Positions 3,001 to 6,000 of a stretch of 6,236 nucleotides of DNA are shown here, one piece after another. Within the stretch, counting starts at the first letter, position 1. Each line of letters opens with the position of its first letter. The stretch lies in IMG/VR virus record IMGVR_UViG_2534681935_000037, positions 1-6,236 of that record; one strand, 5' to 3'. Origin of the DNA: a virus (lineage: Duplodnaviria; Heunggongvirae; Uroviricota; Caudoviricetes). Position numbers: made by a program.

Positions 3001-6000
3001 AGATTGCCATGCGCAAGGCTGGCAACTCTCCGGTAACTCCGGATGGTTGGATAAGCTGTAGTGAGCGAATGCCGGAGAAATACGATTTCGATATCTGGGT
3101 ATTCTCTCCATCCAGAGGTGTTCTTGACGGGCTACAGTGGGATGGCTCGATGTTTACTGATGATGAATATCAGTTCGTTATTCATGACGCCACGCATTGG
3201 ATGAGAAAAGTATATCCAGCAGCACCGCAGCAGGATGGTGAATGATGCCGCCAGTTAAAGTTGTGATTATCACTTTGGTGATGATAGTGATTGCGAGAAT
3301 CATGTCTGGTGAAATTGTGTGGATATGGTAATGGCTAAGGCAGCAGCAGAGCGCAACTAACAATCCTCGCACTCGCGGGGATTTCTTTTATCTGAACTCG
3401 CTACGGCGAGTTTTGTTTTATGGAGACAAGAAATGTCAGATTTGGCTATGAAGGTTTTGAAATGGCAATCAACTGGCGATGTCGGCATCAGTAGCGCAAC
3501 TCTTGCCTCAATCGCATGTGGCCTGAAAAAGAATATCTATGGTCATGGCTTCGGTGCTCCACATGACGCAGCCGATTTCAGACGATGCGTTGCACTTGTT
3601 GAGCAGATTCCAGAAATCAGAGATTCATTCGACAAGGTTGCAAAGCGCGTTCCGGCATTCAAAGGAATCCTCAACGAATGGGATTCCCTCGTTGCTCTGT
3701 TGAAGTCTGAAATGAAGATACACGGAAACAAAGCACCAGAGACTTACAGAAGAATCAGCGAGCTACGCAAGGACTAACGCCTCACACTCGATGAGGCCTG
3801 TTCATATCTGATAGAGCCGCTATATGGCGGTTTCTTTTTGCCTGGAGAATTAAGATGACCGATACCAGCCTGATTCCTGAGAAAGAAGTGATGAACAAGC
3901 TCGGTGTTTCATCACGTCAGACAATCTGGAACTATACCAAATGAACCGCCCCGGAAATCCTGGAGACTAAACTCCCTGAGAAAGAGGTAAACAGGATGAC
4001 TAAAAATACTCGTTTTTCCCCCGAAGTCCGTCAGCGGGCGATTCGTATGGTTCTGGAAAGTCAGGATGAATATGACTCACAGTGGGCGGCAATTTGTTCC
4101 ATTGCCCCAAAGATTGGCTGTACGCCGGAGACTCTGCGTGTCTGGGTTCGCCAGCATGAGCGGGATACCGGGGGCGGTGATGGTGGGCTCACCAGCGCTG
4201 AACGTCAGCGTCTGAAAGAGCTGGAACGTGAAAATCGTGAACTGCGCCGCAGTAACGATATCCTTCGCCAGGCTTCCGCTTATTTTGCGAAGGCGGAGTT
4301 CGACCGCCTCTGGAAAAAATGATGCCACTGCTGGATAAGCTGCGTGAGCAGTACGGGGTCGGACCGGTATGCAGCGAACTGCATATTGCCCCGTCAACGT
4401 ATTACCATTGTCAGCAACAGCGACATCATCCGGATAAACGCAGTGCCCGTGCGCAGCACGACGACTGGCTGAAGAGAGAGATACAGCGCGTATACGATGA
4501 AAATCATCAGGTGTACGGTGTGCGTAAAGTCTGGCGTCAGTTGTTACGGGAAGGAATCAGGGTGGCCAGATGTACAGTGGCACGTCTCATGGCGGTTATG
4601 GGACTTGCCGGTGTTCTCCGGGGTAAAAAGGTCCGTACGACCATCAGCCGGAAAGCCGTTGCCGCAGGCGACCGCGTAAACCGTCAGTTCGTGGCAGAAC
4701 GACCTGACCAGCTGTGGGTGGCTGATTTTACTTACGTCAGCACATGGCAGGGCTTCGTCTATGTGGCGTTTATCATTGATGTGTTTGCCGGATACATCGT
4801 GGGGTGGCGGGTCTCATCGTCTATGGAAACGACATTCGTGCTGGATGCGCTGGAGCAGGCGTTGTGGGCCCGTCGTCCGTCTGGCACCATCCATCACAGC
4901 GATAAAGGCTCTCAGTATGTGTCACTGGCCTATACGGAGCGACTAAAAGAAGCCGGATTACTGGCATCAACAGGGAGTACAGGCGACTCGTATGACAACG
5001 CGATGGCTGAGAGCATCAATGGTCTTTACAAAGCGGAGGTAATACACCGTAAGAGCTGGAAAAACCGTGCAGAAGTGGAACTGGCCACACTAACGTGGGT
5101 GGACTGGTATAACAATCGACGATTGCTGGGAAGGCTGGGCCATACTCCTCCGGCAGAAGCAGAAAAAGCTTATTATGCTTCCATCGGAAACGATGATCTG
5201 GCAGCCTGAGTTCACAGATAAAACACTCTCCAGGAAACCCGGGGCGGTTCAAAACGGCACGGATTTCCGAAGCCAGTCAGAACCCACCCCAAATCATACC
5301 TTCGTGAAGCTGTTGAAGGGTGGATTCTTAACGGTGGCGTTAATCAGAAATGCTCCTGATGTGCCAGAACAATTTATCAGCGTGAAGCTCATACGCTTTG
5401 CGCTGAGCCTCTATCCAGTCGTGTTTATTGTATACGGACATTATCCCGCCAAGTTCATGACCGAGCATTCGCTCAGTAACATGAGGCTCGACATTCATCT
5501 CGGACAGACGTGTAACAAGCGTTCTTCTGAAATCATGTGTTCGCCAGTAACCTAGATCCATCCCTCCCCTTATTCTATTTACGAATCGGTTAGCTGCAGC
5601 GATGCTGATCGGTTTGTTTATGTCTTCTCCAGGGAAAAGAACATCATTGTACGTTGTCATGGCCTTTTCGAGAAAAGGCTTAATTTGATCGAAGATTGGA
5701 CGGCGGATAACATTACCCATCTTGCTATGCTCTTTCGGTACGGTCCATACGTTGTCCAGCAGGTCAAATTCTGTCTTTGTTGCCAGCCTAAGCTCTGAGA
5801 GCCTCGCCCCCCACAGCATAAGCATCTGATGAAGGAGCTTATTTGACGTAGACGCACGGCTTCTTTCAATAGCAAGCCAGATCTTAGCCAGTTCGTGATA
5901 CGACAGTACCCGATCCCCTACCTCAGCGCGGGAGCCGAAGTCCCTTGGTTGGATGCTCATAATTGCGCAACTATCTATCAACTGACGCCGCATGCACCAA

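Follow-up and report, generated by a model that had tools for sequence, protein, structure and literature searches.

ORF114, a long-annotated accessory gene between terminator-like hairpins within the exo-xis segment of lambdoid prophages

Positions 1 to 6,236 of the IMG/VR virus record IMGVR_UViG_2534681935_000037 form a stretch of 6,236 bp, hereafter called the window, which is the exo-xis part of the early-left (pL operon) region of an Escherichia coli O157:H7 lambdoid prophage of the Shiga toxin 2c (Stx2c) type. The open reading frame (ORF) at 3433-3777 on its + strand is the homologue of ORF114 of phage 434 and is the subject of this work. We conclude, with a probability of roughly 0.65, that ORF114 forms a conserved accessory cassette in the lambdoid pL operon, at the end nearest xis, and that its expression depends on the antiterminator N. 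The cassette sits between tL4, a shared terminator, and a pre-xis terminator, which is t'I in λ and 434 and a non-homologous analogue in the window. An earlier reading of the sequence, which we call the original prediction, had taken the gene for an orphan with the layout of a phage moron, lying between the end of the early operon and the xis/int module. We find instead an ordinary swappable accessory gene, long annotated, and not a newly found self-contained moron.

ORF114 and its flanking hairpins

The ORF114 coding sequence (CDS) begins with ATG and encodes 114 amino acids (aa), an assignment that draws on the ORF call, a match to PHROG 1229, homology to 434 and an AlphaFold2 model; the product is predicted to be soluble and all-α. 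A Shine-Dalgarno (SD) motif, GGAG, lies at 3422-3425, 7 nt before the ATG. Together with its spacer it forms GGAGACAAGAA (3422-3432, + strand), the left edge of the conserved cassette as defined by the junctions in 80 prophage loci, introduced below, and in phages 434, HK022 and c341.

Immediately upstream on the same strand is a tandem pair of hairpins. The first occupies 3362-3393 and reads AATCCTCGC-ACTC-GCGGGGATT followed by TCTTTTATCT; a terminator scan, the fold and homology to λ and 434 all identify it. Its hairpin proper (3362-3383) has a 9-bp stem, a folding energy of -13.1 kcal/mol (z = -6.6) and the tail TCTTTTAT. The second, at 3394-3421, reads GAACTCGC-TACG-GCGAGTTT followed by TGTTTTAT, and was identified by the scan, the fold and an alignment of six phages (the window, λ, 434, HK022, c341 and SPN9CC) across which it is invariant. 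Here the hairpin (3394-3413) has an 8-bp stem and -11.9 kcal/mol (z = -4.8), and the T-tract in its tail, TGTTTTAT, abuts the ORF114 SD, its last T at 3419 being 13 nt before the ATG.

Two more hairpins follow the stop codon. The nearer, GCCTCA-CACTCGA-TGAGGC at 3779-3797 (+ strand), marks the right end of the conserved cassette by fold and conservation, and is found within 60 nt of the ORF114 stop in 74 of the 80 loci. It has a 6-bp stem (-8.7 kcal/mol) and no U-tract, and is therefore no canonical terminator; it is possibly a stabiliser of the mRNA 3′ end or a weak terminator. The farther one, at 3814-3843 (+ strand; scan and fold), reads GAGCCGC-TATA-TGGCGGTTT followed by CTTTTTG. It is terminator-like, with -10.5 kcal/mol for the hairpin at 3814-3833, and its z of only -1.5 is unexceptional against shuffled sequences. 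This element is part of the AlpA-type xis module and differs from one type of xis to another, so the only hairpin of the cassette's own is the one without a U-tract. Across the whole window the scan returned 11 terminator-like sites, compared with 5.8 +/- 2.2 in shuffles. An Rfam scan of the window gave no match at the hairpins; the only match is a frameshift pseudoknot in an insertion sequence (IS) described below.

Much of what the original prediction said about this layout holds: the coordinates and SD of the 114-aa ORF, the two downstream hairpins with one T-tract terminator among them, and the distance of 13 nt from the upstream terminator, although that terminator is a tandem pair and not a single hairpin.

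The upstream pair is tL4, within the pL operon

The upstream pair is 97% identical to λ (J02459) 29292-29360, which lies between ea8.5 and orf55, and a query with the pair alone retrieved 319 phage records, λ among them. The matched stretch overlaps the feature 't-L4' of GenBank M60848.1, a phage 434 record titled 'integrase (int), excisionase (xis), ORF114, and ORF55 genes' and annotated in the order t-L4, ORF55, ORF114, t'-I, xis, int. The same λ hairpins were predicted as t3 and t4, and the pre-xis hairpin as t5, by Bloch et al. 2014 (PMC4195576, Table 4), so that the first and second hairpins of the window correspond to λ t3 and t4 and t5 is t'I. Terminator-like hairpins at 190-212 and 785-803 of the window (+ strand) match the t1 and t2 predicted for λ and Φ24B in the same study (Bloch et al. 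2014, PMC4195576). Conserved predicted terminators punctuate the whole exo-xis region.

The gene itself was also known. The protein of 434 shares 110 of 114 residues (96%) with that of the window, which is in turn 100% identical to proteins of the Stx phages 2851 and 1717; the HK022 homologue (HK022p30, NP_597889) shows 97% and gene 20 of Salmonella phage c341 93% aa identity. With these relatives, a match to PHROG 1229 and 2,854 family representatives, ORF114 is no orphan. In the current RefSeq record of HK022 (NC_002166) ORF114 has lost its annotation and nothing is annotated between Ea22 and xis, and an intact ORF114 homologue (3501-3845) and an intact orf55 homologue (~3296-3475) lie there unannotated.

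O157 chromosomes match the window over its full length at 99.9-100% identity, and phage 2851 matches it at 99.8% once a 1,310-bp insertion is set aside. From the annotation of phage 2851 and RefSeq, the genes follow one another on one strand: gam, bet, exo, DUF1317, DUF1382, a small ORF, a TraR/DksA-like gene (λ orf73-like), Ead/Ea22, several hypothetical genes, DUF551, the 114-aa ORF and an AlpA-type xis (labelled AlpA family regulator in related records). A convergent tyrosine integrase gene follows, beside the host gene sbcB. Farther upstream on the same strand phage 2851 carries kil, cIII, an N-like antiterminator and cI/cro. In both phage 2851 and the RefSeq genome ORF114 therefore lies between exo and xis on the pL-transcribed strand. 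This is a canonical pL operon, with the N-type antiterminator about 6.7 kb upstream of ORF114. What the original prediction regarded as the end of the early operon is a set of hairpins whose homologues sit within the pL operon of λ. The alternative that it had named as fatal to its own proposal, namely that the gene merely belongs to the operon upstream, comes close to what we find, given that tL4 is inside that operon and downstream of an N-type antiterminator.

ORF114 is an exchangeable cassette between conserved joints

Beside the six-phage alignment we used 80 E. coli prophage loci from IMG/VR, in all of which ORF114 has 114 aa and is 98-100% identical; some counts are of the 66 or 63 non-redundant loci. 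In λ, orf55 ends within the hairpin GCCGCCTGATGGCGG, which is followed by T6, CTTGCGTGTAATTGCGG and xis. In 434 and HK022 the same hairpin GCCGCCTGATGGCGG is followed by T6-8, ATTGGAGACAAGAA-ATG, ORF114 and TAA, and then by GCCTCACACTCGATGAGGC, ~35 nt, the terminator GCCGCATCAATGCGGC with T4-5, the same CTTGCGTGTAATTGCGG and xis. Because the same joints flank the site in both arrangements, ORF114 is, relative to λ, an insertion at the t'I T-tract. The window, c341 and SPN9CC lack orf55, and in them the second tL4 hairpin joins ORF114 via 'TTTTATGGAG|ACAAGAAATG'; in λ, 'TTTTATGGAG' joins orf55 instead ('ATGATAAATG'). As TTTTATGGAG stands before both genes, the joints are short common sequences made of a terminator tail plus an SD, of the form 'hairpin - T-tract - (T)TTTAT(T)GGAGA'. 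Between identical joints orf55 and ORF114 are independently present or absent in λ, 434, HK022, c341 and SPN9CC.

The larger set of loci gives the same picture. In every junction type listed for the 80 loci, as well as in 434, HK022 and c341, GGAGACAAGAA closes the 60 nt that precede the ATG, and upstream of GGAGACAAGAA the sequence varies from phage to phage: ORF114 directly follows tL4 in 33 loci, the terminator at the end of orf55 in 41 and something else in 6. After the GCCTCA hairpin come a λ-type t'I (GCCGCATCAATGCGGC-T4) in 50 loci, the AlpA-xis terminator of the window in 11, another gene in 12 and other sequence in 7. Two upstream and three downstream types of flank are thus in play, and every combination of them is seen among the 66 non-redundant loci. 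Three parts make up the cassette: an SD of its own, the 114-codon ORF and a short hairpin on the 3′ side.

Divergence is concentrated within the gene. Between the window and SPN9CC the CDS has 60% nt and 62% aa identity, with synonymous sites saturated, compared with 96.8% in the tL4 region and 95.7% in the 3′ hairpin. Flanks that are 96-97% identical around alleles that are 60% identical would be explained if the hairpins serve as recombination linkers. We read these conserved linkers around exchangeable cassettes as the classic lambdoid mosaic pattern.

Terminator-like hairpins bound ORF114 on both sides in 54 of 63 lambdoid loci, compared with 2 of 60 diverse phage loci and a background of 19 in 600 random 125-nt windows. 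The layout that had caught the eye in the original prediction is therefore beyond chance, and it is a property of the lambdoid tL4-t'I slot, not of the gene family: in PY54, Vibrio phages, Mu-like phages and metagenomic phages, the ORF114 relative is packed tightly within early operons. When all ORFs from 68 diverse loci were clustered, no neighbour family recurred outside one closely related phage group, so guilt by association gave no lead.

Two further observations concern recombination at this site. In c341 (locus 3400-3440; alignment columns 30-70) a different intrinsic terminator, GGGTCGCAATGCGGCC with T6, is nested in the loop of the first tL4 hairpin, and it looks as if terminators are themselves targeted by insertion or recombination. 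Separately, many E. coli records (for example phage P27 and phi419) hold only the N- or C-terminal half of ORF114, sometimes fused to fragments of Kil, Erf, Ea22 or dATP/dGTP-pyrophosphohydrolase, and PHROG 8038 corresponds to the half at the N-terminus; a mosaic breakpoint thus seems to recur within ORF114, close to residue 57.

Proposed expression from pL by N-dependent read-through

A scan for σ70 consensus-like promoters found no such site upstream of ORF114 on the + strand in the window, HK022, c341 or SPN9CC. The conserved cassette begins at GGAGACAAGAA-ATG right after the terminator T-tract, which leaves no room for a promoter. With two strong predicted terminators 13 nt before the ATG and no promoter between, transcription would come essentially only from N-antiterminated polymerase started at pL. 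We hypothesize that N-modified polymerase reads through tL4 into ORF114, making it a delayed-early gene that stays silent while the prophage is repressed and is expressed together with xis once infection or induction has occurred. From the homology of tL4 and textbook λ regulation, such N-dependent read-through is the most likely route of expression, and expression in the prophage state is unlikely. The terminator hairpins would then have a second role as conserved linkers at which homologous recombination swaps cassettes.

Several points weigh against this account. Termination at tL4 and at 3814-3833, as well as read-through by N, are deduced from sequence and textbook λ biology. A σ70 consensus scan would miss a weak, activator-dependent or alternative-sigma promoter overlapping tL4. 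Expression patterns in the exo-xis region are reported to vary with phage and inducer, and predicted terminators explain them incompletely (Bloch et al., PMC4195576). The binding role proposed for the protein below rests only on the positions of conserved residues in a predicted model, and the invariant R51-C52, W11 and W83 could instead form an active or ligand-binding site.

ORF114 belongs to a large family of uncharacterised phage proteins

The window protein matches PHROG 1229 with E = 3e-51 and 173 bits, residues 1-114 aligning to profile positions 1-113 of 116. This family, to which the fragment or fusion families PHROG 8038, 15291 and 4212 are related, carries no functional annotation, so the match names the family only. 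A profile search of 1.84 billion representatives gave 2,854 proteins with E <=1e-3, of which 657 reach E <=1e-10 (family representatives clustered at 50% identity). They come from Proteobacteria and Actinobacteria phages; among the phage records with relatives are P22-like Salmonella phages, Yersinia PY54, many Vibrio phages, 95-kb Escherichia and Enterobacter phages, the Mu-like SuMu, and Arthrobacter and Clavibacter phages; a protein of the giant virus Sylvanvirus matches by fold. In BFVD all relatives are uncharacterised viral proteins. The gene is found in 915-963 of 5,426 complete E. coli genomes (~17%), including Stx phages of O157:H7, and in the K-12 phages HK022, 434 and mEp043/213/234. 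Every source names the product 'hypothetical' or 'prophage protein'.

No Pfam or NCBIfam family matched the window protein at E up to 0.1, no Pfam family matched any of 69 diverse aligned members at E up to 0.01, and no defence family of the hidden Markov model set PADLOC-DB v2 matched at E up to 0.1. Searches of the PDB by single sequence and by profile returned noise only (E >=0.4), and neither a signal peptide nor a transmembrane segment was found in the protein. These results agree with the original prediction, which had seen no known family, transmembrane segment or catalytic motif; among profile searches only the unannotated PHROG 1229 answered. The AlphaFold2 model is confident (predicted local distance difference test score, pLDDT, 94; predicted template modelling score, pTM, 0.87) and shows seven helices, all-α, with no solved relative of its fold in a PDB copy up to April 2026.

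Among close alleles the ratio of nonsynonymous to synonymous substitution rates (dN/dS) is 0.12-0.19, which indicates that the protein is under purifying selection. Given this ratio and the size of the family, we rejected the idea that the ORF is decaying or non-coding. A DNA mimic was rejected because the residue count gives a net charge of about +4, and a membrane exclusion protein because there is no transmembrane segment.

Across diverse members S20, P43, D45, D48, R51, C52 and W83 are invariant and W11, G18, S21 and P60 nearly so, giving the conserved motif G-x-S-S-x-T, P-x-D-P-x-D-F-x-R-C. In the model, S20-S21(-x-T23), D45-P-x-D48 and P60-E61 lie at the N-termini of helices 2, 3 and 4, which suggests that these residues are capping boxes and structural, not catalytic. 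Guided by the model, we offer the low-confidence guess that in early lytic growth the protein binds some conserved macromolecule of host or phage stoichiometrically and is not an enzyme. It would then resemble other exo-xis products that adjust host physiology or shift the balance between lysis and lysogeny.

Fusion partners are varied and carry no annotation: extensions were found at the N-terminus (33) and the C-terminus (12), in clusters of <=2 and <=4 members, and none had a Pfam or PHROG identity. One metagenomic protein, a single instance, has two tandem ORF114-like domains, and a single metagenomic contig of 1.9 kb encodes a CCA-adding or poly(A)-polymerase plus HD enzyme with a C-terminal ORF114-like domain.

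Alternative roles for ORF114

The most interesting possibility within the proposal of an early lytic binder is that ORF114 serves early counter-defence or host takeover, perhaps by inhibiting or sponging up a widespread bacterial immune component, and is expressed by read-through from pL as above. We consider this possible, on balance unlikely. It would suit a small, soluble early-region protein with a strongly conserved motif and no partner gene, whose relatives range over Proteobacteria and Actinobacteria phages and a giant virus, and which is located among early accessory genes (Lar-like, methyltransferase, Gam, Abc2). However, this context fits any early accessory gene, and neither sequence nor fold resembles a solved anti-defence protein in the PDB copy searched.

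A moron is reportedly defined, by Juhala et al. and by Hendrix et al. in 2000, as an extra gene between two that are adjacent in a related phage, with its own promoter, a factor-independent terminator directly downstream, a base composition unlike that of its neighbours and expression from the repressed prophage. As a classical moron, ORF114 would be a promoter-gene-terminator unit expressed from the repressed prophage and conferring superinfection exclusion or defence, and we regard this as improbable. The first part of the definition describes ORF114 well, since it is an extra gene between adjacent genes, λ having tL4-orf55-t'I-xis and 434 and HK022 tL4-orf55-ORF114-t'I-xis, and it is present or absent at the same junction among lambdoid phages. 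It is followed by a hairpin and a terminator, of which the hairpin without a U-tract belongs to the cassette and the terminator-like site to the xis module, and it lies near the prophage end, a common position for morons and other cargo, with the annotated moron cor nearby in HK022. Against this stand the lack of a promoter-like site and a left edge that consists of an SD abutting a terminator T-tract. Base composition is not atypical either: the G+C fraction of the ORF is 0.46-0.47, that of the flanking exo-xis genes 0.43-0.50, and the IS alone differs (0.54-0.56). Nor is there a PADLOC match, and unlike many exclusion proteins the product has no signal peptide or transmembrane segment. Distant homologues, moreover, lie in the early operons of virulent, Mu-like and linear-plasmid phages and not in lysogenic-conversion positions. 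Of the moron proposal, then, the exchangeable cassette survives, and the self-contained transcription unit does not.

A small DNA- or RNA-binding regulator with a degenerate helix-turn-helix is quite improbable: the segment 'VGISSATLASIA' resembles the turn and recognition helix of such a motif and the net charge is positive, yet these are sub-threshold hints. Least probable of all, and in our view barely credible, is a helper of Xis and Int in excision or integration, for while ORF114 adjoins a λ-type xis in 434 and HK022, an HK620/P22-type int region in c341 and SPN9CC and an AlpA-type xis in the window, λ does without it, about 12 of the 80 loci have another gene between it and xis/int, its homologues in PY54 (a linear plasmid prophage), SuMu, 60-95-kb Vibrio and Escherichia phages and metagenomic phages have no xis/int nearby, and a slot for cassettes where the pL operon has its distal end accounts for the adjacency more simply.

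Other features of the window

The AlpA-family xis downstream of ORF114 is interrupted. Comparison with the intact 63-aa xis of phage 2851 shows that codons 1-29 lie at 3855-3941 (+ strand), where they are cut by the IS; the 3′ remainder, mapped from phage 2851 coordinates, lies at 5252-5359 (+ strand) and overlaps the 3′ end of the convergent int. The interrupting element is an IS629/IS1203 (IS3 family) of 1,310 bp at 3942-5251 (+ strand), identified as a clean insertion by BLAST against phage 2851, by its transposase ORFs and by RefSeq annotation. It has a 3-bp target duplication, AAA, at 3939-3941 and 5252-5254, and carries the pseudoknot found by Rfam, an ALIL frameshift element at 4277-4393. 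The IS is separate from the ORF114 unit. With its xis split after codon 29 of 63, the Stx2c prophage is probably excision-defective, judging from the sequence. In strain NZRM4169 an IS1203 transposase is annotated between ORF114 and an intact xis, which suggests, at the level of annotation, another insertion site there.

The tyrosine integrase gene, seen in ORF calls and in the annotation of phage 2851 and RefSeq, runs from 5340 to 6236 on the - strand, convergent to the pL operon, and continues past the window end. The 3′ ends of xis and int overlap by 20 nt (5340-5359 in the window; 6835-6854 in a related locus), so that transcripts reading through from pL beyond ORF114 and xis would be antisense to int, a regulatory geometry unlike that of λ.

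Two further ORFs lie upstream of ORF114. One, unannotated, at 3242-3331 (+ strand), encodes 29 strongly hydrophobic aa (MMPPVKVVIITLVMIVIARIMSGEIVWIW), overlaps the DUF551 stop and ends shortly before tL4; from its sequence it could be a small membrane peptide. The other, at 2000-2545 (+ strand), encodes 181 aa and belongs to PHROG 9263/631, with a weak match to a 'DNA repair protein' PHROG and, by eye, a PD...(E)xK nuclease-like motif (PDAMGF...LIEAKCS). In its place phage 2851 has a shorter gene, and a RefSeq genome has pseudogenes with frameshifts or internal stops.

Significance and comparison with known systems

A search of the literature for ORF114 by accession, locus tag or name found nothing, and the exo-xis papers that we found treat λ, Φ24B and 933W, which lack the gene. 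As ORF114 was annotated in 434, the feature is already known. Modestly new are the cassette joints at the sequence level, the finding that terminator bounding is specific to the lambdoid slot, and the size of an unnamed family with an apparently unrepresented fold. It also follows that terminators on both sides of a small gene beside xis/int do not by themselves make that gene of a lambdoid prophage a moron, the terminators here being the shared tL4 of the pL operon and a t'I analogue, which probably double as recombination linkers.

The exo-xis region is reported to influence the induction of Stx prophages (PMC4195576, PMC4699033), and a function for ORF114 would add to this poorly understood region. 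Because the gene is present in easily handled K-12 phages, its function would be cheap to probe, and the answer would annotate thousands of phage proteins. We speculate, as a rather doubtful idea, that ORF114 is the founding tractable member of a huge unnamed family whose S-S / D-P-x-D-F-x-R-C site binds a conserved host target or signalling molecule. If that were true and the target universal, the family would be a new class of host-takeover or counter-defence factor.

The closest known counterparts are the ORF114 genes of 434, HK022 and c341, which likewise encode 114 aa and occupy the slot directly upstream of xis/int behind a terminator; none of the three records gives a function. In 434 and HK022, however, ORF114 stands after orf55 and before a λ-type t'I and xis, whereas in the window it directly follows tL4 and precedes a different terminator, an AlpA-type xis and a convergent int. 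The pre-xis hairpin of the window (3814-3843) is in the same position as λ t'I but is not homologous to it and travels with the AlpA-type xis.

Phage morons, such as cor of HK022 (an annotated moron in NC_002166), share with ORF114 the status of an extra gene between the neighbours of a relative and a downstream hairpin or terminator; HK97 gp15 is another example of a moron. ORF114 differs in having no detectable promoter of its own, a typical G+C content and a place inside an antiterminated early operon.

In λ the positional analogue is orf55, the last ORF of the exo-xis region. It too is a small ORF behind tL4 with the same 'TTTTATGGAGA' joint, ends in a terminator, is independently present or absent and has no assigned function, although a role as a T7 Gp2-like RNA polymerase modulator has been proposed from modelling only (PMC8614690). 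The two proteins are unrelated in sequence and fold, Orf55 being modelled as a small α/β protein and ORF114 as all-α.

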